Source: Escherichia coli (GTDB taxonomy: Bacteria > Pseudomonadota > Gammaproteobacteria > Enterobacterales > Enterobacteriaceae). Taken from it: a stretch of DNA of 64,000 nucleotides. Positions within the stretch are counted from its first letter, which is position 1; every line of letters begins with the position of its first letter. The notes beneath the pieces were generated by a model. It did not search any database and was not told where the DNA came from. It saw only the letters and a program-made list of their open reading frames with translations. Below are positions 1 through 35,670 of this stretch, one piece after another. The stretch is taken from NCBI RefSeq assembly GCF_022846255.1, contig NZ_AP025682.1; one strand, given 5' to 3'. A program made the position numbers and the translations under genes.

Positions 1-775
1 TTTTATGGCTGCGTAAGGTGCGAAAACGTGAGTCGGCATCACCATCCAAAAGCACCGAACAGTCGATACAGTGTTCCAGCACTTTAGGGCCAGCCAGCGA
101 GCCATCTTTGGTTACGTGCCCGACCATGACAATCGCCACACCGCGCGTTTTGGCGAAGCGCGTCAGATAAGCCGCCGTTTCACGCACCTGTGCCACGCTG
201 CCAGGCGATGATTGTACATCCGCCATATGCATCACCTGGATGGAGTCAATTACCATCAGCTTCGGTTGCTCTTCTTCGGCAATCAGGCAGATCTGCTCGA
301 TGCTGGTTTCCGACAGCATATTAAGATTGTCAGTCGGCAGGCCAAGGCGATGAGCGCGCATTGCCACCTGTTGCAGCGACTCTTCGCCGGTGACATACAG
401 CGTTTTCATCTGCTGCGCCAGTTTGCACAGCGTTTGCAGCAACAGCGTGGATTTCCCCGCACCAGGGTTACCGCCAATCAGAATGGCGCTTCCCGGCACC
501 ACGCCGCCGCCTAATACGCGGTCGAACTCTTTAAATCCGGTGGAAAAACGCGGCAGCTCTTCAAGGCTGATGTCGGAAAGTTTCTGGACTTTTGCCACTC
601 CGGCGCTACCGGCATAGCCACTGAGACGCTCGTTACGCGCCACCGTTGGCGACGCTGCAAGACGCACCTCGGTGATGGTGTTCCAGGCATGACAGGCACT
701 GCACTGCCCCTGCCAGCGCGGATAATCGGCCCCGCATTCATTACAAACAAAGGCGCGTTTTGGAGCTTTTGCCAC
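1..775 (-). CDS. radA: DNA repair protein RadA/Sms, N-terminal part (gene runs off the window start)
   Basis: Minus-strand frame from GTG at 775 (GAGG RBS upstream) reads MAKAPKRAFVCNECGADYPRWQGQCSACHAW (C4 zinc finger) then GGNPGAGKST Walker A; no stop before the window edge, so it is absent from the ORF track. Confidence 0.85.
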   Translation of the reverse strand, partial: MAKAPKRAFVCNECGADYPRWQGQCSACHAWNTITEVRLAASPTVARNERLSGYAGSAGVAKVQKLSDISLEELPRFSTGFKEFDRVLGGGVVPGSAILIGGNPGAGKSTLLLQTLCKLAQQMKTLYVTGEESLQQVAMRAHRLGLPTDNLNMLSETSIEQICLIAEEEQPKLMVIDSIQVMHMADVQSSPGSVAQVRETAAYLTRFAKTRGVAIVMVGHVTKDGSLAGPKVLEHCIDCSVLLDGDADSRFRTLRSHK

Positions 776-823
776 GATGTACCTCGTTAATGCTGTGCCG
801 CCCGCAGGATGACGGGCGGACAA

Positions 824-1792
824 TTACTTCTGATTCAGGCTGCCAGAGAGGATGCAGAATACCCCCATCAGGTCAGCGTGACGGATGGTGACTTCCGTCT
901 TTTCATTCACTTTTGGCTTGGCATGGTAGGCAATCCCCAGCCCTGCCGCTTTGATCATCGGCAGGTCATTGGCTCCATCGCCAATCGCCACGGTCTGCGC
1001 CAGCGGGATTTCATACTCCTGCGCGAGGCGGGTCAGGGTTTTCGCTTTATATTGCGCGTCAACGATGTCGCCGATCACATTGCCGGTAAATTTACCGTCC
1101 ATGATCTCCAGTTCATTGGCTACCACGGTTGTCAGGCGTAGCTTGTCGCGCAGGTATTCAGCAAAGAAAGTAAAGCCGCCGGAGGCAATCGCCACTTTCC
1201 AGCCCAGCGTTTCCAGCTTGAGTACCAGCTGCGTTAAGCCTGGCATCAGCGGCAGATTTTCACGCACCTGTTGCAGAATATTGGCGTCAGCGCCTTTCAG
1301 CGTCGCCACGCGGCTGCGCAGGCTGGCGGTAAAATCGAGTTCGCCGCGCATCGCCCGTTCGGTTACCTCCGCCACCCTCTCGCCCGTTCCGGCCAGTTTG
1401 GCGATTTCATCAATACATTCAATCTGGATGGCGGTGGAATCCATGTCCATCACCAGCAACCCCGGCGTGCGCAGGTGTGGGATTTTCCCCAGCGGCGCGA
1501 CATCCAGTTGCGCTTCATGGGCCAGGCGCGTAGCCCGCGCAGTGAGTGAACCTGCCAGACGAATCACCTGATAATCTTCCACGCACCAGGCGGCAACAAT
1601 CACCATAGCCGCGCCCAGTTTGCTCTGGTATTGGGTCAGACGTTGTTTATCCAGCCCACGACCATACAGCAGCCAGCCGCTACGACCTGCGTGGTAATCC
1701 AGTGGCATCACTTCATCACCACTTAATGAAAGAGGCAGACCAGGCCATAAAGAGACATCTTCAGGCAGGTCGCACCAGGTAATGTTAGGCAT
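824..1792 (-). CDS. serB: Phosphoserine phosphatase
   Basis: ORF track 824..1930; start set at internal Met (MPNITWCDLPEDV) with CAGGAG RBS; HAD motif DMDSTAI; 322 aa; synteny with radA. Confidence 0.93.
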   Translation of the reverse strand: MPNITWCDLPEDVSLWPGLPLSLSGDEVMPLDYHAGRSGWLLYGRGLDKQRLTQYQSKLGAAMVIVAAWCVEDYQVIRLAGSLTARATRLAHEAQLDVAPLGKIPHLRTPGLLVMDMDSTAIQIECIDEIAKLAGTGERVAEVTERAMRGELDFTASLRSRVATLKGADANILQQVRENLPLMPGLTQLVLKLETLGWKVAIASGGFTFFAEYLRDKLRLTTVVANELEIMDGKFTGNVIGDIVDAQYKAKTLTRLAQEYEIPLAQTVAIGDGANDLPMIKAAGLGIAYHAKPKVNEKTEVTIRHADLMGVFCILSGSLNQK

Positions 1793-1897
1793 TAAGGCTC
1801 CTGTAAAATCGTTCGAAGCAGGGAAAATAACGCATGAGGCTACCTTGTATCCATTGCTTCTGGCAACATTAAGTCTCAAATTTTCAAAGGGTGGAAG

Positions 1898-2542
1898 ATG
1901 GCTCGCACAAAACTGAAATTCCGGCTGCATCGGGCAGTGATTGTCCTGTTCTGTCTTGCCTTGTTAGTGGCGCTGATGCAGGGGGCGTCATGGTTTAGTC
2001 AAAACCACCAGCGACAGCGTAATCCACAGCTGGAAGAACTGGCCCGCACCCTGGCGCGTCAGGTGACGCTGAACGTTGCACCGCTGATGCGTACCGACTC
2101 ACCGGATGAAAAACGCATTCAGGCGATCCTCGATCAGTTAACGGATGAAAGCCGTATCCTCGACGCGGGCGTGTATGACGAACAAGGCGATCTTATCGCC
2201 CGTTCTGGCGAAAGCGTCGAAGTGCGCGACCGGTTGGCGCTCGACGGCAAAAAAGCGGGCGGCTATTTTAACCAGCAGATTGTCGAACCTATTGCCGGGA
2301 AAAACGGACCGCTCGGCTATCTGCGCCTGACGCTCGACACCCATACGCTCGCCACCGAAGCCCAACAGGTGGATAACACCACTAACATTTTACGCCTGAT
2401 GTTGCTGCTCTCACTGGCAATCGGCGTAGTGCTGACCCGCACGCTGCTACAGGGTAAACGCACCCGCTGGCAGCAATCGCCCTTCCTGTTAACCGCCAGC
2501 AAACCGGTGCCGGAAGAGGAAGAAAGCGAGAAAAAAGAGTGA
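1898..2542 (+). CDS. ytjB: Inner membrane protein YtjB/Smp
   Basis: 214-aa ORF, N-terminal TM helix, divergent from serB as in E. coli. Confidence 0.9.
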   Translation: MARTKLKFRLHRAVIVLFCLALLVALMQGASWFSQNHQRQRNPQLEELARTLARQVTLNVAPLMRTDSPDEKRIQAILDQLTDESRILDAGVYDEQGDLIARSGESVEVRDRLALDGKKAGGYFNQQIVEPIAGKNGPLGYLRLTLDTHTLATEAQQVDNTTNILRLMLLLSLAIGVVLTRTLLQGKRTRWQQSPFLLTASKPVPEEEESEKKE

Positions 2543-2569
2543 CCCATTACTACAAGAAAGGAAATCGTT

Positions 2570-3586
2570 ATGTCCACATTACGCCTGCTCATCTCTGACT
2601 CTTACGACCCGTGGTTTAACCTGGCGGTGGAGGAGTGTATTTTTCGCCAGATGCCCGCCACGCAGCGCGTTCTGTTTCTCTGGCGCAATGCCGACACGGT
2701 AGTGATTGGTCGCGCACAGAACCCGTGGAAAGAGTGTAATACCCGGCGGATGGAAGAAGATAACGTCCGCCTGGCGCGGCGCAGCAGCGGTGGCGGCGCG
2801 GTGTTCCACGATCTCGGTAATACCTGCTTTACCTTTATGGCTGGCAAGCCGGAGTACGATAAAACCATCTCCACGTCGATTGTGCTCAATGCTCTGAACG
2901 CGCTCGGCGTCAGCGCCGAAGCGTCCGGACGTAACGATCTGGTGGTGAAAACCGCCGAAGGCGACCGCAAAGTCTCAGGCTCAGCCTATCGCGAAACCAA
3001 AGATCGCGGCTTCCACCACGGCACCTTGCTACTCAATGCTGACCTTAGCCGTCTGGCAAACTATCTCAACCCGGATAAAAAGAAACTGGCGGCGAAAGGC
3101 ATTACCTCGGTACGTTCCCGCGTGACCAACCTCACCGAATTGCTGCCGGGGATCACCCATGAGCAGGTTTGCGAGGCGATTCGAGAGGCCTTTTTCGCCC
3201 ATTATGGCGAGCGCGTGGAAGCGGAAATCATCTCCCCGGACAAAACGCCAGACCTGCCGAACTTCGCCGAAACCTTTGCCCGTCAGAGTAGCTGGGAATG
3301 GAACTTCGGTCAGGCTCCGGCGTTTTCGCATCTGCTGGATGAACGCTTTACCTGGGGCGGCGTAGAACTGCATTTCGACGTCGAAAAAGGCCATATCACC
3401 CGCGCCCAGGTGTTTACCGACAGCCTCAACCCCGCGCCGCTGGAAGCCCTCGCCGGGCGACTGCAAGGCTGCCTGTACCGCGCAGATATGCTGCAACAGG
3501 AGTGCGAAGCGCTGCTGGTTGACTTCCCGGAACAGGAAAAAGAGCTACGGGAGTTGTCAGCGTGGATGGCAGGGGCGGTAAGGTAA
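2570..3586 (+). CDS. lplA: Lipoate-protein ligase A
   Basis: 338-aa [25 protein letters not shown]..., full-length LplA-like. Confidence 0.95.
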
Positions 3587-21164: not shown

Positions 21165-21847
21165 TCTGCGGCATCTCCATAAACAGAAGGCAAGTTAAGT
21201 TCTCTTGCACCCTGCGCGCTATTTATCCATGCATACATTTCAGCGTTGCTGTGAATTGCCAGTCGACGCATCGCACTGTTTTTTTGGGCGCTGATAGTTT
21301 TATTACTTTTCTTAAGCAATGAAGCTATCTGGTTGATGCCCCATCCTTTACCTAATAGCCGCAGTACCTTGCGCTCTGAAAGAGTGAGAATGACGGAGCG
21401 ATAGCTAAAATCATGAGTTTCAGTCATTGCCGGAGAGGTCAGCATGGCGCTGATACGCTCTGAGTGCGTATTGCCGGAACGTACGGTCTTGACCAGATTC
21501 TCAATGGGTTCAACATCAGACAATAACGTCGCCGTAGGGCACATGAGCAATTCTACTGCCTGGGAATACCAGGAGCGTGACACCATGAAAACCCAGTGAA
21601 TTTCCCGATATTGTGAGATTAAAGAGTAATAATGCTCACAAACGGAACGTGGATCTTCACTTTCACCGGCCAAATCAGCAATGACTAATCCGGAACGACG
21701 TAATTGTAATAAGGTAAGGTCCTCCGCAGAGGCGCTGGATATTATTTCATATTCAGGGAAGTGAGTCCTCATGACCTCTTTTAACCCTGCTTGCATAACA
21801 GGTATTTTACTGATAACAATTCCATTTTTGCAGCATCCTGGCAACAT
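21122..21847 (-). CDS. yjjQ: LuxR-family transcriptional regulator YjjQ
   Basis: 241-aa ORF with C-terminal LuxR HTH ([23 protein letters not shown]). Confidence 0.9.
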
Positions 21848-22466
21848 ATTTCCTCCACATCCACTGTCTAAAAATCATGATGGTTTATTCAAGGTATTCA
21901 TTCCTTAAATATTTCCAGCAAATTAATAGATTAAGCGAATAAATTATCCTTAGCATTCACTTTCATATCAGCATACTCCTGCTGCACAACAACTCCACTG
22001 CATGTGTCAGAAGGTTAGCATCAAATGATAACCTGGTGAAATAGCCTGGAGACATTTAAAATATCTACATTAAGTTGTTAGAAATACTTAATGAAAAACA
22101 GAAATCTCATTCATTTAATTTATAATTAAATGATATCTCTTCCCGCAGAGTGCGGGAATCACACAATCAATATTTATTCAATAAAATCTGATGGTTTTAA
22201 CTTGTTAACATTAAAAAACGCGCCCAGCTATCTATTATCCTGACTCGTAAAGGCCAAATAACAAATTCATTATAGTGATAATATTCATGCGATAGTTTGT
22301 TTACGGCGAGAGATAATTCGCTTTTTATCACCGAGCATCTCCCGATAACCAGGATTAATCAGCGCAATTTTGATCTTAACCTACCGCAAAACAACCGTGC
22401 TTCATGATACAAATGGATTCTCATTATCTGAACAATACGCAGCACGTCTATGACAAAGGGCGAGTT
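21848..22466. promoter_or_regulatory. AT-rich divergent yjjQ/yjjP intergenic region (likely nucleoid-protein-silenced promoter)
   Basis: About 600 bp, strongly AT-rich, no convincing ORF. Confidence 0.4.
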
Positions 22467-23701
<1,235 letters not shown>

Positions 23702-29336: not shown

Positions 29337-29474
29337 GATTCACCGCTCCTTTTATTTTATGACTTTCAGATATCGTCGAATTTATAAGAGCGCCTGAATT
29401 TACCCATAAAATATGCGGATGATCGCGCATAAAAATGTTTTAAATCGGCTTTTAATGCCGGACTGGAGGGAAGA

Positions 29475-30380
29475 ATGAGTCGTTCGCAGAATTTACGTCA
29501 TAGCGTCATAAATCAGGTGATTGAAGATATGGCGAGGGGCAATATTCCTTCTCCGCTGCCTTCACAAAGCGGACTGGCAGAAATGTATAACATCAGTCGC
29601 ACTACGGTACGCCACATACTCCAGCATTTAAGCGCATGTGGCGTGCTCACCCTAGTGGGGAAAAATTATGTTATCGCCCGCAAACCCGAACAGAACGATG
29701 GATTTGATTGCATCACGGCCTCGCTGAAAGAGCAAAACCGTCTTTTCGAGCAGGCATTTTTCACCATGATTAACCTGCGCCAGTTACGCGCCGGAGAAAG
29801 CTTTTCCGAACTTCAGCTGGCGCGAGCGGCAAGCGTCAGTCCGGTAGTGGTACGAGAATATCTTTTGAAATTCGGTCGTTATAATCTTATTCAAAGCGAA
29901 AAGCGCGGCCAATGGAGCATGAAGCAGTTCGATCAATCCTACGCCGAGCAGCTGTTTGAGCTACGCGAAATGCTCGAAACACATTCCCTGCAACACTTTC
30001 TCAACCTTCCCGATGATGACCCTCGCTGGCTGCAAGCAAAAACCATGCTCGAACGCCACCGGACGCTGCGCGACAGCATTGGCAGCAACTTTCGAATGTT
30101 TTCTCAATTAGACCGTGATTTTCATGCCATGCTGTTATCCGCTGCTGACAACATCTTTTTTAATCAATCACTTGAAATTATATCGGTGATCTTTCATTTT
30201 CACTATCAATGGGATGAAAGCGATCTCAAACAGCGCAATATCATTGCTGTTGATGAACATATGACCATTCTCAGCGCCCTGATTTGCCGTAGCGATTTAG
30301 ATGCAATAACGGCGTTGCGAAACCATCTGGATACCGCCAAACAATCAATGATTCGTTCCATCAGGCAACATCACCGATAA
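29475..30380 (+). CDS. lgoR: GntR/FadR-family transcriptional regulator LgoR
   Basis: 301-aa ORF; N-terminal GntR HTH (LPSQSGLAEMYNISRTTVRHIL); divergent from lgoD. Confidence 0.85.
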   Translation: MSRSQNLRHSVINQVIEDMARGNIPSPLPSQSGLAEMYNISRTTVRHILQHLSACGVLTLVGKNYVIARKPEQNDGFDCITASLKEQNRLFEQAFFTMINLRQLRAGESFSELQLARAASVSPVVVREYLLKFGRYNLIQSEKRGQWSMKQFDQSYAEQLFELREMLETHSLQHFLNLPDDDPRWLQAKTMLERHRTLRDSIGSNFRMFSQLDRDFHAMLLSAADNIFFNQSLEIISVIFHFHYQWDESDLKQRNIIAVDEHMTILSALICRSDLDAITALRNHLDTAKQSMIRSIRQHHR

Positions 30381-30550
30381 ATTAAGTACAGATTAAAAAC
30401 ATTGATTCTTGGTTTATATCACTATGTTGTATTAATGCAGTATTAATCCAGGCGATTGTTCTGCCCATAAGGAAATACATAGGGAATAAACGATGCTGGA
30501 AGTATTACTCTCAGCCATCATTTAACTCCCTATTACTGACAGCGATAAAA

Positions 30551-32224
30551 TTATCGGCTATCCATGATTAACGTTTCCAGCACATCTAATTCACTGACTA
30601 TTTTTGCCAGTGTTTCATCACTGACTTCTTGCCTTGCGCGCATCTGGTAAATAGCCGCGCGTTTGGCATTTAACGCCGCCAGATTAAATGTTCTTTCCAG
30701 CTTCGCACGCTGCATATGCAGGGAATTATCATTAGGCGACATATCCTCTTCACTATGTCGCATATAACCGATAACTCTGGCCCCCGTTTCCATAATCAAC
30801 TCGTTATCGAGGTTTTCTGTTCTGGCGCGCAGCAAACGTTGCTCGGTCTTTTGCACACTCAGTATGGCCATTTTAGCCATAAACAGATCGGCAGCTTCCT
30901 CTTCTTTTTGTCGGTTATCGCTGAAAATCCCCACATTTTTCCCCAGTAATAACGGCAGAATAATAATGCCGCAAACCAGCGAAAAGAGGATCACACCTGT
31001 GGCGAGAAATACCAGCAAGTAACGCCCGGGAAAAGGTGTGCCATCCGGCAGCAATAACGGGATAGAAAGCACCCCCGCAAGCGTGATAGCTCCGCGCACC
31101 CCCGCAAAGGTCGCCAGCAGCATATGACGCGTTTTATATCCAGCAAACAGCATCGGATGTTTGCCGGGTCGTTTACGGCTATACAGACGCATCAGCCAAA
31201 GCCAGCCCAGGCGCACAACCATTAACGCCAGGTAGATCCAAATGACATCAAGGAGCAGCGATCCGGTGTCCACCAGTGGATCGTTTTCTGCACGGATCAG
31301 TGATTCCGAAATAATGCCCGGCAGTTGTAAGCCTAAAATCAGAAACACCATGCCGTTAAAGACATATTCAAGCATCGACCAGCTACTTTTAGCTTTAATT
31401 CTCAGGCGAATAGGCGCGCGGTGGACTACGCCAATGCGACTGGTTGTTAACCCCGCGGCGACAGCGGCAAGAATGCCAGATAAGCCAAAATGTTCCGCAA
31501 CCAGATAAACAATAAACGGCAACAGAAGCATCAATACAATCTGAATGGAAGGTTCATCGTGAGCATATCGGCTGATCAACAGCAGCCCTTTACCATATAA
31601 CCAGGTAACAGCGATCCCCACGGCAATACCGCCCAACGCAACGACAAAAAACGCAATGGTTGCGCCATGAACGCTGAATTCCATCGTTCCCATCGTCACT
31701 GCAACAGCAAATTTCAACGCCACCAGGCCGGAAGCATCATTCATCAACGCTTCGCCTTCGAGCACTTCCTGGATGTTTTTGCTGATACGCCCTTTCCCGA
31801 CAATCCCCAGCAACGCCACGGCATCGGTAGGCGACAACACGGCGGCTAATGCGAAAACAGCGATGAGCGGCACATTCGGTAAGAGTAAATGAATCACATA
31901 GCCGACACCAAAAATAGTGATTAGTACCAACACAAGTGCCAGGCTGATAATTTCCCGGCTGTGCTTGATCAATTCTTTAGGTTGTATTTTTGAACTTTCA
32001 GCAAACAACAGGGGTGGTATAAACAATAAGAGAAAAAGTTCAGGATTGAATTCCACATGCAGACCAAATATAGGCTGGGCCAGTACTGCACCAGCGGCAA
32101 TCTGGATTAAAGGAAGTGGTATCTGGACAGGAGACAGACGTGTAAGCACGCTGGTTAATGATACTACCAACGTAAGAATTAAAATTGTTAAAAGTATTTC
32201 CATATAATAAACAGGCTTCCTCAT
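30551..32224 (-). CDS. CPA1-family Na+/H+ (cation/proton) antiporter with C-terminal cytoplasmic domain
   Basis: 557-aa ORF, many TM segments, NhaP/NHE-like; start ambiguous between ATG at 32224 and ATG at 32203. Confidence 0.75.
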   Translation of the reverse strand: MRKPVYYMEILLTILILTLVVSLTSVLTRLSPVQIPLPLIQIAAGAVLAQPIFGLHVEFNPELFLLLFIPPLLFAESSKIQPKELIKHSREIISLALVLVLITIFGVGYVIHLLLPNVPLIAVFALAAVLSPTDAVALLGIVGKGRISKNIQEVLEGEALMNDASGLVALKFAVAVTMGTMEFSVHGATIAFFVVALGGIAVGIAVTWLYGKGLLLISRYAHDEPSIQIVLMLLLPFIVYLVAEHFGLSGILAAVAAGLTTSRIGVVHRAPIRLRIKAKSSWSMLEYVFNGMVFLILGLQLPGIISESLIRAENDPLVDTGSLLLDVIWIYLALMVVRLGWLWLMRLYSRKRPGKHPMLFAGYKTRHMLLATFAGVRGAITLAGVLSIPLLLPDGTPFPGRYLLVFLATGVILFSLVCGIIILPLLLGKNVGIFSDNRQKEEEAADLFMAKMAILSVQKTEQRLLRARTENLDNELIMETGARVIGYMRHSEEDMSPNDNSLHMQRAKLERTFNLAALNAKRAAIYQMRARQEVSDETLAKIVSELDVLETLIMDSR

Positions 32225-32893
32225 TCATAAATAATGGATATTATTAATTTAATTTCATAAAAAGCGCTCTGGTTAGCACTTAACGTTAATCATTAATCAC
32301 TGCGTTCACTCACATGATCAGAAGGAACCCAGTAAAATAAGTTTTCAAGTTGATAACAAATTCACCATGTGAATATTTACTGCCTTTCCCCGTTGTAACG
32401 AATCGTCCGTTACTCTCTGATTTCCTTGCCGAACAAGTTATTTAGTGAATGACGGCTTTCTTTTAATATCAGCATGAATTATACGTTCAGCAAATGTATT
32501 AAATCAGCACTAAATAAATTTAATGGATACCACCATTCTGCGTCAACACTTAGTTTTTATCTGTATTGACAATTTAAAATGGCCGCAGCCAAATTAATGA
32601 TTTTATTTTTAATAAATCATCAACAGAATAAGAGATCTTATCAGCGGTAACTAAACTCATCAGAGGGTGTTCCTTGTAACGTCATGCATTACATAACTTT
32701 AAAATATACAATCAAAAAATGCATTAAAAACCGATTAAAAGCAGCAAAGTATTACCCGGTGCACGAATTTATGATACATCTGCAGCCATTCTGCTATTCG
32801 CTGACTACTTTTCAGTAATGACTGCTTTTTCATAAGGTTTCACTCCCGACAACAATGTTGGAGTTTTATTTTCTTAGCATGGAGTAAGTAAAG
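32225..32893. promoter_or_regulatory. AT-rich divergent intergenic region between the antiporter gene and the TRAP operon
   Basis: About 670 bp, very AT-rich, no ORF of 60 aa or more; contains a TTGACA-like hexamer. Confidence 0.35.
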
Positions 32894-33865
32894 ATGAGCA
32901 AAATAATAGCGATGCTAATTACTGTCAGTACCTTTTTTTTACCGTCAATAATCCAGGCAAAACCTATTTCAATAAAAGTTGCCTATGAAAATAACCCTGG
33001 AGAACCCCTGGATGTAGTCATGCGTTACTGGGCAGACCTATTAAATAAAAAAAGTAATGGCGAAATAACACTTGCGCTCTATCCCAGCTCCCAATTGGGA
33101 TCAAAACAGGATGTCACCGAGCAAGCCATGATGGGCATGAATGTCATAACCTTGAGTGATGTGGCCTTTCTTGCCGATTATGAACCCGATTTGGGGATTT
33201 TGTTTGGACCGTATCTGACTGACGATCCGCAAAAACTGTTCAAAATATATGAAAGCGACTGGTTTAAACAAAAAAATGAAAGTCTGAAGAAAAAGGGAAT
33301 TCATGTGGTAATGAATAATTATCTCTATGGCACTCGACAGATTATTTCGAAAAAACCCATTCGCACCGTTGACGATCTCGCAGGTTTAAAAATTCGCGTT
33401 CCTAATAACGTCATGCAAATAAAAGCCATTCAGGCGATGGGGGCAACACCAACTCCCATGCCATTAGGCGAAGTTTATCCCGCATTAACCCAGGGCGTTA
33501 TTGACGGCGTAGAAAACCCAATTTCAGTGCTGCAAGGGCAAAAACTGTATGAGCAGGCAAGATATCTGACAATGGTTAACTACCTGACAAATACCTCAGT
33601 GTGGATAGGTGGTGAAGCCTTCTTTAGCACCCTTTCACCAGAACAACTGGAGATGATCCACCAGACCGGCTATGAAGCGGGTGTCTATAGCCAGAAACTC
33701 ACTCTTGAGCGTGATGCCGAAATGTTGAAAACCATGCAGGCAGCCGGCGTCGAAGTGATCTATCCCGATACTGGACCATTCCAGAAGAAAGCACGCGAAG
33801 TTTACTCTCAATTCCCGGAATGGACACCAGGTCTGTACGAAACCATTCAACAGCAACTGCAATAA
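32894..33865 (+). CDS. TRAP transporter substrate-binding protein (DctP family)
   Basis: 323-aa ORF with signal peptide; markedly AT-rich codon usage; followed by DctQ/DctM-like genes. Confidence 0.8.
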   Translation: MSKIIAMLITVSTFFLPSIIQAKPISIKVAYENNPGEPLDVVMRYWADLLNKKSNGEITLALYPSSQLGSKQDVTEQAMMGMNVITLSDVAFLADYEPDLGILFGPYLTDDPQKLFKIYESDWFKQKNESLKKKGIHVVMNNYLYGTRQIISKKPIRTVDDLAGLKIRVPNNVMQIKAIQAMGATPTPMPLGEVYPALTQGVIDGVENPISVLQGQKLYEQARYLTMVNYLTNTSVWIGGEAFFSTLSPEQLEMIHQTGYEAGVYSQKLTLERDAEMLKTMQAAGVEVIYPDTGPFQKKAREVYSQFPEWTPGLYETIQQQLQ

Positions 33866-33928
33866 GCATTAATGCTCAGCGTCCTGCCTCATCTCTCTTA
33901 GGCAGGACACGCACTAACAGGAGGTTTC

Positions 33929-34402
33929 ATGCGTCTTTTTGGCAAAGTGGCAGAATTTAGTGCTGCCTTTGCGCTATTCGTTCTGGTTGTGGTGACAATT
34001 GGAGCGGTATTTATGCGTTATTTCATCGGCCAACCGCTTCAATGGACAGAAGAAATGTCGGGAATGCTGATGATTTGGGTGGTGATGTTAGGTGGAGTGG
34101 TGGCGGAACGTGACAGGGCGCACCTGACCATTCCCTTCCTGATGGAGATGCTTCCAGGCAAACTCAGGCGTGTTATTGCAGTACTGGTCGCCCTTCTCTC
34201 CATCGCACTGCTGCTTTATATGGCCTGGCTGGGCTACCGACTAGCCGAAATGGCGCAGTTTAAAGTGACACAAATTCTGAAGGTTTCCTGGTTCTGGATC
34301 GATCTGGCGGTCCCTGTCGGCGCACTGGCAACGGCTATTTATACCCTCTACTGGTTAATAAACGATACAAAACAATCCGATAGCGGAGACAAAATGCAAT
34401 GA
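33929..34402 (+). CDS. TRAP transporter small permease (DctQ family)
   Basis: 157-aa, 4-TM ORF; overlaps the next gene by 4 nt. Confidence 0.8.
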   Translation: MRLFGKVAEFSAAFALFVLVVVTIGAVFMRYFIGQPLQWTEEMSGMLMIWVVMLGGVVAERDRAHLTIPFLMEMLPGKLRRVIAVLVALLSIALLLYMAWLGYRLAEMAQFKVTQILKVSWFWIDLAVPVGALATAIYTLYWLINDTKQSDSGDKMQ

Positions 34403-35670
34403 GTTGGTTATTGATTATTCCGCTAATGATCGTCTGTTTGTTTCTCAACATTCGGGTCTATCTGGCGATGTTTATTGGCATCATCGCTTACTTTTTATTC
34501 TTCTCCAGCGTACCGATTGAAATTGCCGTGCAAAGACTAATCGCGCCAACGCAAAGCCCATCATTGCTGGCCATTCCGTTTTTTATCTTGCTAGGCACAC
34601 TAATGAGCTACACCGGCATTGCCGAACGCATCCTGCACATTGCCAACGTTCTGGTGGGGAAAATGCGCGGCGGACTGGGCGTGGCAAACATTCTCGTCAG
34701 CACCATGATGGGCGGCGTCAGCGCCTCTAACCTTGCTGACGCGGCGATGCTGTCGCGCATGATGGTGCCGGAGATGGAGCGTAAAGGCTACAATCGCGCG
34801 TTTGCCGCCGCCATTACCGCTGGTGGCTCGTTAGTCACCCCGATCATACCGCCTGGAATAGCCCTGATTATTTACGGTCTGGTTGCCGACGTCTCTATCG
34901 GAAAAATGTTTATCGCCGGACTGGTACCTGGTTTGCTATGCGCAGTCGTACTGATGTTTACCGTCTACCTTGTCGCCCGCAAAACTAACGCTAAACCCTC
35001 GCGTGAAAGCTGGCCTACGGGCAAAGAGGTGGTGTTCTCGCTGGGACAGGCCTGGCCTGCGCTGTTCCTCATTTTTGCTGTGGTGGGTGGTATTCGCGCT
35101 AACATTTTCACCCCAACAGAAGCAGGTGCAGTAGCGGTGCTAATCGTGCTGGCGATTGGCTTTTTTATCTATCGTGAAATGCGGATTTCTCATGTCGTCA
35201 AAGCATTGGGCGAAACGGCACGCGCAACCGCATCGGTGATGCTGGTAATCATGGCCAGCGCCGCATTGGGATGGATTTTCTCAATGGAACATGCTGGTGT
35301 CGCAGTGGCGAATTTTGTGACTTCGCTGACCGAAAACAAATACATGTTCCTGTTGATTATCAACATATTGCTGCTGACGCTGGGGATGTTTCTGGAAGGA
35401 AACGCCATTTTGCTGATCCTGGTACCACTATTAAAACCGGTGGTCGAACACTTTGGCATCGATCCGGTGCATTTTGGCATCATCATGATCTTCAACCTGT
35501 CGATTGGCGCATTCACGCCACCGGTAGGTACCGTGATGCTGCTGGTATGTAATATCACGCAAGTTTCGGTGGGAAATTTCTTTAAACAATCCCTGCCCCT
35601 ACTGGCGGCTCTACTGTTAATGCTAATGCTGGTGACATATATCCCGGCGATTTCACTGTTCCTGGTTTAA
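34399..35670 (+). CDS. TRAP transporter large permease (DctM family)
   Basis: 423-aa polytopic membrane ORF; ATGA overlap with the DctQ-like gene. Confidence 0.8.
   Translation: MSWLLIIPLMIVCLFLNIRVYLAMFIGIIAYFLFFSSVPIEIAVQRLIAPTQSPSLLAIPFFILLGTLMSYTGIAERILHIANVLVGKMRGGLGVANILVSTMMGGVSASNLADAAMLSRMMVPEMERKGYNRAFAAAITAGGSLVTPIIPPGIALIIYGLVADVSIGKMFIAGLVPGLLCAVVLMFTVYLVARKTNAKPSRESWPTGKEVVFSLGQAWPALFLIFAVVGGIRANIFTPTEAGAVAVLIVLAIGFFIYREMRISHVVKALGETARATASVMLVIMASAALGWIFSMEHAGVAVANFVTSLTENKYMFLLIINILLLTLGMFLEGNAILLILVPLLKPVVEHFGIDPVHFGIIMIFNLSIGAFTPPVGTVMLLVCNITQVSVGNFFKQSLPLLAALLLMLMLVTYIPAISLFLV

Follow-up and report, generated by a model that had tools for sequence, protein, structure and literature searches.

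A probable composite control region between a divergent antiporter gene and a TRAP operon in the L-galactonate locus of Escherichia coli

The L-galactonate (lgo) locus of Escherichia coli K-12 (lgoR-lgoT/lgoD; yjjM, yjjL, yjjN) lies between opgB and tsr, and the transporter that it encodes is the MFS symporter LgoT, whose gene follows lgoR after a spacer of 214 nt. In RegulonDB-based work, in which lgoRT is treated as one operon, lgo regulation is assigned to UxuR/ExuR (PMC5934670). The corresponding locus of Citrobacter amalonaticus, in three genomes (L004, L005 and L051), has the order opgB-lgoD-lgoR-TRAP-tsr, with 181 nt between lgoR and the TRAP genes. There is no antiporter gene at either locus. 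K-12 does have, in yjcE, a gene for a putative Na+/H+ antiporter of the CPA1 family, but it follows ghxP in the same orientation with an upstream spacer of 151 nt and has no TRAP neighbour. Searches of the literature for published LgoR sites, for TRAP and L-galactonate in E. coli and for UPEC start-site maps returned nothing on the form of the locus considered here.

That form is found in the window, by which is meant the whole 64-kb stretch that was analysed, from an E. coli chromosome of the CFT073/B2 kind that is 99.4-99.6% identical to many such genomes. The locus is the L-galactonate locus: like K-12, it has lgoD and lgoR between opgB and tsr, with an lgoR-like regulator of the GntR/FCD type, and, like C. 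amalonaticus, it has a TRAP operon rather than LgoT, the binding proteins of the two being 91% identical. Unlike both, it has an antiporter gene that is a paralog of yjcE, so that the order reads opgB-lgoD-lgoR-antiporter-gap-TRAP-tsr. The gap is bounded by divergent genes, the antiporter gene being read from the minus strand and the TRAP operon from the plus strand:

30551-32203 (first call to 32224), minus strand: Na_H_Exchanger antiporter gene, a YjcE paralog, from a domain match and the PGAP start
32204-32893, no strand: the whole intergenic region, 690 nt, 33% GC, from the antiporter ATG at 32203 (minus strand) to the TRAP binding-protein ATG at 32894
32894-35670, plus strand: TRAP operon, with genes for DctP (323 aa, 32894-33865), DctQ (157 aa, 33929-34402) and DctM (423 aa, 34399-35670), all on the plus strand

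The initial annotation had picked out 32225-32893 as a long AT-rich stretch between the divergent antiporter gene and TRAP operon, with no ORF of 60 aa or more, and this description holds. Its 669 nt have a GC content of 33.2%, that of the window being 51.0%; of all stretches of this length in the 64 kb only 0.9% equal it in AT-richness, and the longest ORF within it is of 44 aa. The window has two other stretches that are as AT-rich, 21601-22500 (minimum GC 0.34), upstream of yjjQ-bglJ homologues, and 62321-63900 (minimum GC 0.28), which overlaps an ORF at 62829-63542, and these three are its most AT-rich. According to PGAP, and also to an alignment that includes homologues of other genera, the antiporter starts at the ATG at 32203 (MEILLT...) and not at 32224, and the true gap is therefore 32204-32893. 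Of 5426 complete E. coli genomes 859 have it, as a single copy on the chromosome, and no annotated feature lies under it in any of the 859. About 16% of complete E. coli genomes, CFT073-like ones included, consequently have the TRAP and antiporter version of the locus instead of lgoT. In CFT073 itself the TRAP binding-protein gene (L001:12795-13768) is annotated as a frameshifted pseudogene; the window copy is intact. The closest solved relatives of the window binding protein are 4ovt and 4o8m, which we take to have been solved with L-fuconate and L-galactonate bound, ligands that would fit the lgo context. Elsewhere in Escherichia, in E. coli SCPM-O-B-8794, E. albertii and E. whittamii (L007, L008 and L010), there is a second TRAP system, whose binding protein shares 72% identity with that of the window and which adjoins a gene for a YjjN-like dehydrogenase. 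It is probably the ygiQ..ftsP region of PMC12928451, the TRAP cluster of which is at that different locus.

The gap is probably a composite bidirectional control region, made up of two promoter regions joined by an unconstrained spacer and with no gene of its own. It was compared in four lineages, namely that of the window, the 97-3250 type (94% identical), the Escherichia sp. E4742 type (L078) and strain N50 (L002). Neutral identity to the window, taken from four-fold-degenerate sites in the flanking genes, is 0.93 for 97-3250, 0.69 for the E4742 type and 0.55 for N50. Three blocks are conserved above neutral in the four lineages, with variable sequence between them (identities are those of the window to N50, per 25-column alignment bin):

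32204-32315, minus strand: block A, antiporter-proximal, including the ribosome-binding region; identity 0.48-0.90
32316-32482, no strand: variable spacer V2; identity 0.24-0.56
32360-32374, no strand: 15-nt palindrome ATTCACcatGTGAAT, a conserved island in V2, partly kept in five lineages
32483-32579, minus strand: block M, the middle block, 97 nt; identity 0.60-0.76
32580-32689, no strand: variable spacer V1, with large indels; identity 0.24-0.44
32690-32893: block T, TRAP-proximal; identity 0.67-0.84
32690-32722, no strand: the part of block T beyond the ancestral control region described below, conserved among E. coli-type lineages only

The conserved blocks whose presence was at issue thus amount to ~413 nt, and the gene-proximal sequence is above neutral identity on both sides, which bears out the initial description of the gap as a divergent control region. 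The view that it is longer than two promoters need also stands, as V1 and V2, about 277 of the 690 nt, show no detectable constraint: they contain indels, and their identity does not rise above the neutral level. Block M is modestly above neutral (0.60-0.76 versus 0.55). Block A contains a tandem GATTAATGATTAAC at 32285-32298 on the plus strand, and the palindrome ATTCACcatGTGAAT, in which 93% of cells are paired across the lineage alignment, is a possible operator or small hairpin. In a mechanism consistent with this map the ~110 nt by the antiporter start, together with the 97 nt of block M, would presumably drive and tune antiporter expression, and the 277 nt between the conserved parts would be an unconstrained AT-rich spacer. 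The TRAP binding-protein gene of N50 (L002:6210-7181) and window 32894-33865 have 96% identity as protein and 39% at four-fold sites, which is saturation, and tsr and lgoR are likewise unusually diverged. At this locus E. coli harbours allelic lineages that are very old or inter-species.

Alignment with the related loci divides the gap at a different point, and on that basis it is a mosaic of an ancestral transporter control region and the upstream DNA of an antiporter segment. The features involved, which include copies of a 21-nt motif, are:

29436-29456, minus strand: a third copy of the motif, ATTAAAAGCCGATTTAAAACA, facing lgoD from within the spacer between the divergent lgoD and lgoR
30381-30401, plus strand: left copy of the motif, ATTAAGTACAGATTAAAAACA, directly after the lgoR stop (30378-30380)
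30402-32722, no strand: segment missing from the K-12 and Citrobacter loci, 2321 nt, the antiporter gene and its flanks
32723-32743, plus strand: right copy of the motif, ATTAAAAACCGATTAAAAGCA, 151-171 nt before the TRAP ATG, with two half-sites (ATTAAAA) at a distance of 11 nt
32723-32893, plus strand: ancestral control region of the lgo-locus transporter, 171 nt, presumed TRAP promoter and leader, from the Citrobacter and K-12 alignments

The 171 nt at 32723-32893 align with the lgoR-to-TRAP spacer of C. amalonaticus, and their 5′ ~50 nt with the lgoR-to-lgoT spacer of K-12. The first 21 nt of the Citrobacter spacer align also with window 30381-30401. Both relatives have a single copy of the motif at the position after lgoR; K-12 then has ~30 nt in common with the TRAP-upstream sequence before diverging towards lgoT, and its lgoR stop codon falls inside the motif. 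The rightmost 171 nt of the gap would accordingly be described as the old promoter/operator region of the lgo-locus transporter, opening with the 21-nt motif, and the leftmost 519 nt (32204-32722) as belonging with the YjcE-paralog antiporter, in a segment that sits between lgoR and the TRAP operon. Besides these 519 nt the segment has the antiporter gene and a 149-nt 3′ flank, and it is bracketed by the left and right motif copies, which are imperfect repeats of each other (17/21 identical). The antiporter is 58% identical in amino acids to K-12 YjcE and of equal length. The suggestion made at the outset that the DNA is of horizontal origin fits the position of these 519 nt within a 2.3-kb segment that the K-12 and Citrobacter loci do not have.

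How the segment came to be where it is could be explained by its insertion in the E. coli lineage, or the relatives K-12 and Citrobacter could have lost it through a deletion between the repeats. Direct repeats around a segment are a classic substrate for deletion, and an ancestral state with the long gap and antiporter, from which the short forms arose by loss, would also accord with the recurrence of antiporter-TRAP pairing in other genera and with a segment in which neither transposase, integrase, terminal inverted repeats nor a plasmid or phage source is apparent. The copies themselves speak against such an origin of the short forms: the left one has one difference from the K-12 site, the right one three from the Citrobacter site and four from the K-12 site, and that they are nearer to different relatives hints at origin from different alleles. 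K-12, moreover, has a different transporter downstream of the shared block, and the locus has therefore been rebuilt more than once. Deletion is on this evidence a possible history but a somewhat doubtful one. A transposable element or MITE was considered as the vehicle of an insertion and rejected. The imperfect 21-nt repeat does flank the segment as a direct repeat, but 21 nt exceeds the usual length of a target-site duplication; no significant terminal inverted repeats were found at the segment ends (the best end-to-end inverted match was equalled by 68 of 500 shuffles), the antiporter gene is the only gene in the segment, with no recombinase gene of the transposase or integrase type, and the segment is single-copy per genome. 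It has no phage match, and a plasmid origin was discarded as its ‘plasmid’ matches are to chromosomes that carry yjcE and are wrongly labelled. Some draft and metagenome contigs (L073:6001-7653, L080 and L081; L076:1133-2782) have reciprocal chimeras of yjcE and the antiporter gene, one type reading ghxP-[5′ ~830 nt yjcE / 3′ antiporter]-lgoR-lgoD-opgB and the other TRAP-gap-[5′ ~500 nt antiporter / 3′ yjcE]-...-actP-acs. On a K-12-like map the two genes are ~310 kb apart in direct orientation. The hybrid junction is present in none of the 5426 complete genomes, and the chimeras are either real rearrangements or assembly artefacts.

The 14-mer ATTAAAARCCGATT of the motif has two exact matches in the 64 kb, at 29443-29456 (minus strand) and 32723-32736 (plus strand). 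Among 82 loci ATTAAAANCCGATT occurs only in lgoD/lgoR spacers, those of K-12, the window type, N50, the E4742 type, Citrobacter and the L073 type, and upstream of TRAP, where all E. coli TRAP-type loci have it. The site at 29436-29456 itself is also present in K-12, Citrobacter, N50 and the E4742-type lineage. At the lgoD and transporter sites the motif points to the regulated gene, and a weak -10-like hexamer follows 22-26 nt further downstream. Since it recurs in every lgoD/lgoR promoter region examined, this direct repeat (ATTAAAA-N4-ATTAAAA) is a candidate operator for LgoR; what counts against that assignment is the usual preference of GntR/FCD regulators for inverted over direct repeats, together with the published attribution of lgo regulation to UxuR/ExuR. 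Scans of the gap for CRP, ExuR/UxuR-like and FadR-type palindromic sites gave no match better than 3 mismatches and no ExuR-like site. No consensus sigma-70-like promoter was found on the plus strand of the TRAP-proximal block, which fits a TRAP promoter that is activator-dependent, and the mechanism that suggests itself is one in which LgoR would bind the motif and the TRAP operon would depend on such activation. The motif, as ATTAAAA-N4-ATT(T)AAAA, would provide an uncharacterized regulator with a candidate operator, one that both promoter regions of the regulon have in the LgoT as well as in the TRAP form of the locus. A motif common to the promoters of a regulon is, along with divergent genes and the conservation of both gene-proximal sides, what a divergent control region would be expected to show.

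Another role for the AT-rich stretch, compatible with that of a composite control region, is as mainly a nucleation platform from which H-NS (or StpA/Hha) silences the antiporter gene and the TRAP operon. AT-rich acquired DNA is a preferred target of H-NS, and the contrast of the gap (33% GC) with the window (51%), along with the 519 nt within a segment missing from related loci, is of the kind expected of xenogeneic DNA. Yet intergenic DNA in E. coli is typically AT-rich, the antiporter coding sequence at 48% GC is not unusually AT-rich, and the high-affinity motif TCGATAAATT is not enriched in the gap, with 1 match at <=2 mismatches where shuffles give an expectation of 1.9. Silencing as the main function is accordingly a tentative and somewhat doubtful proposition. 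Outside the gap, the 3′ end of lgoR with its stop, at window 30373-30386, reads CGATAAATT, which matches 9 of the 10 positions of TCGATAAATT, a C replacing the leading T, and abuts the left copy of the 21-nt repeat.

On the antiporter side of the composite control region, block M contains a promoter-like site:

32517-32546, minus strand: promoter-like TTGACG-N18-TAAATT in block M, pointing at the antiporter gene, ~310 nt upstream of its ATG

Separate scans of the window and of N50 each picked out the site, and all four lineages keep its two hexamers intact, with a spacer of 17 in one of them. Promoter-like hexamers are common in AT-rich DNA, and 7 such sites were found against 4.2 expected. 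If the site were used, the antiporter mRNA would have a leader of ~307 nt. One elaboration is that the antiporter gene is transcribed from this distal site, and that an AU-rich hairpin in the proximal part of the ~300-nt leader, by the ribosome-binding site, is responsive to ions, pH or temperature. The retention of TTGACG-N17/18-TAAATT in four lineages is in keeping with this, as is the finding of no minus-strand terminator between the promoter-like site and the antiporter gene. RNAalifold gives a ~100-nt hairpin, from 32317 to 32219 on the minus strand, in which 90% of cells are paired across five lineages, against ~40% with slid partners. The hairpin was, however, derived from the same sequences later used to test it, and carries no covariation signal: the observed pairing is reached by 163 of 500 shuffles, and in only 2 pairs do both sides change. 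Single-sequence folds of the leader differ between lineages with weak z-scores (-0.6 to -2.4), no Rfam riboswitch family matches, and the middle ~170 nt of such a leader (V2) would be unconstrained. Further, only ~157 nt next to the antiporter gene are conserved in Klebsiella and Limnobaculum, and the working antiporter promoter may therefore be proximal, not distal. A long sensory leader is improbable in the light of these points.

A further alternative, that the gap hides an unannotated small RNA or small-protein gene, had been raised by the initial annotation and did not survive comparison. The gap is long and unannotated, and in one metagenome contig a gene caller did place a 36-aa gene in it. 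The 44-aa ORF at 32684-32818 is open in three lineages, but its amino acid identity is ~50% where nucleotide identity is ~80%, and stop codons cut it in Citrobacter and K-12, as it overlaps the conserved operator block. When ORFs of at least 12 aa were compared across the four lineages, none was shared in position and frame with convincing similarity, and none is conserved across the E. coli-type lineages or into Citrobacter and K-12; a synonymous bias of the kind left by a small-protein gene was likewise not seen in an ORF kept in place. For RNA, 32515-32640 on the minus strand folds far better than shuffles (z -4.7), but the fold is missing from the other three lineages (z -0.15, -0.23 and +1.05), the 97-3250 lineage having a 10-nt deletion that removes part of it, the inner stem. 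The sole strong window in a sliding scan of both strands, 32525-32624 on the minus strand (z about -5), was set aside as lineage-specific. There are two terminator-like hairpins on the plus strand of the gap, but such sites are not called in N50. A hairpin and U-run just upstream of the TRAP ribosome-binding site was also rejected, being not called in N50 and having no consensus structure in 7 sequences (the consensus energy for the TRAP leader is -0.5 kcal/mol). The best matches to Rfam 15 are to eukaryotic or unrelated families, at 10-18 bits and E 1.5-6.9, so that even at E<=10 no small RNA family is matched; neither a covariance match nor a structure with covariation was found in the gap. 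No conserved small gene or RNA is evident there, and a hidden one is very unlikely indeed.

A similar layout occurs outside Escherichia. In Klebsiella sp. I138 (L071) and Limnobaculum xujianqingii (L074/L075) an antiporter 76-77% identical to that of the window is divergent from a DctPQM operon across 703-751 nt, with a GntR/FCD regulator nearby. Their TRAP is unrelated to that of the window, the binding protein, of 353 aa, being 27% identical, and their gaps, at 38-39% GC, are less AT-rich. Between the window gap and the antiporter-upstream gaps of Klebsiella, Limnobaculum and Edaphovirga there is no nucleotide similarity beyond the first codons. A ~70-nt block with an inverted repeat, AACCACAAAGACA...TGTTTTTGTGG, is present at 80% identity in the antiporter-TRAP gaps of Klebsiella sp. 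I138 and Limnobaculum (L071:5298-6000 and L074:4250-5000) and in a metagenome contig (L077:652-1161), where it precedes an enolase-superfamily dehydratase-like gene, and is probably an operator of a sugar-acid regulon. Further antiporter homologues include one near a DASS-family carrier and one adjoining MATE pumps.

The two TRAP operons with which the antiporter is paired are unrelated, a hint that transporter and antiporter may be coupled in function via the sodium cycle. A passage in PMC9971032 describes TRAP transporters as sodium-ion-driven, and recycling of Na+ by the adjoining antiporter is therefore a reasonable rationale: the neighbouring Na+/H+ antiporter could recycle the Na+ that the TRAP transporter imports. 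A bolder version, in which the antiporter together with its long upstream DNA has been recruited repeatedly by TRAP systems, with the distal promoter, ~300-nt leader and AU-rich hairpin sensor serving to match its output to the transporter, is quite improbable. The window shares with K-12 the 21-nt motif, both between lgoD and lgoR and immediately behind the lgoR stop, and also ~50 nt of sequence upstream of the transporter gene; it is unlike K-12 in having TRAP for LgoT, and unlike C. amalonaticus in having the 2.3-kb antiporter segment and with it a second copy of the motif in the interval from lgoR to TRAP. Set beside these loci the gap is an ordinary intergenic control region, one more example of a familiar type of feature, and calls for at most a regulatory-site note and otherwise no change of annotation.
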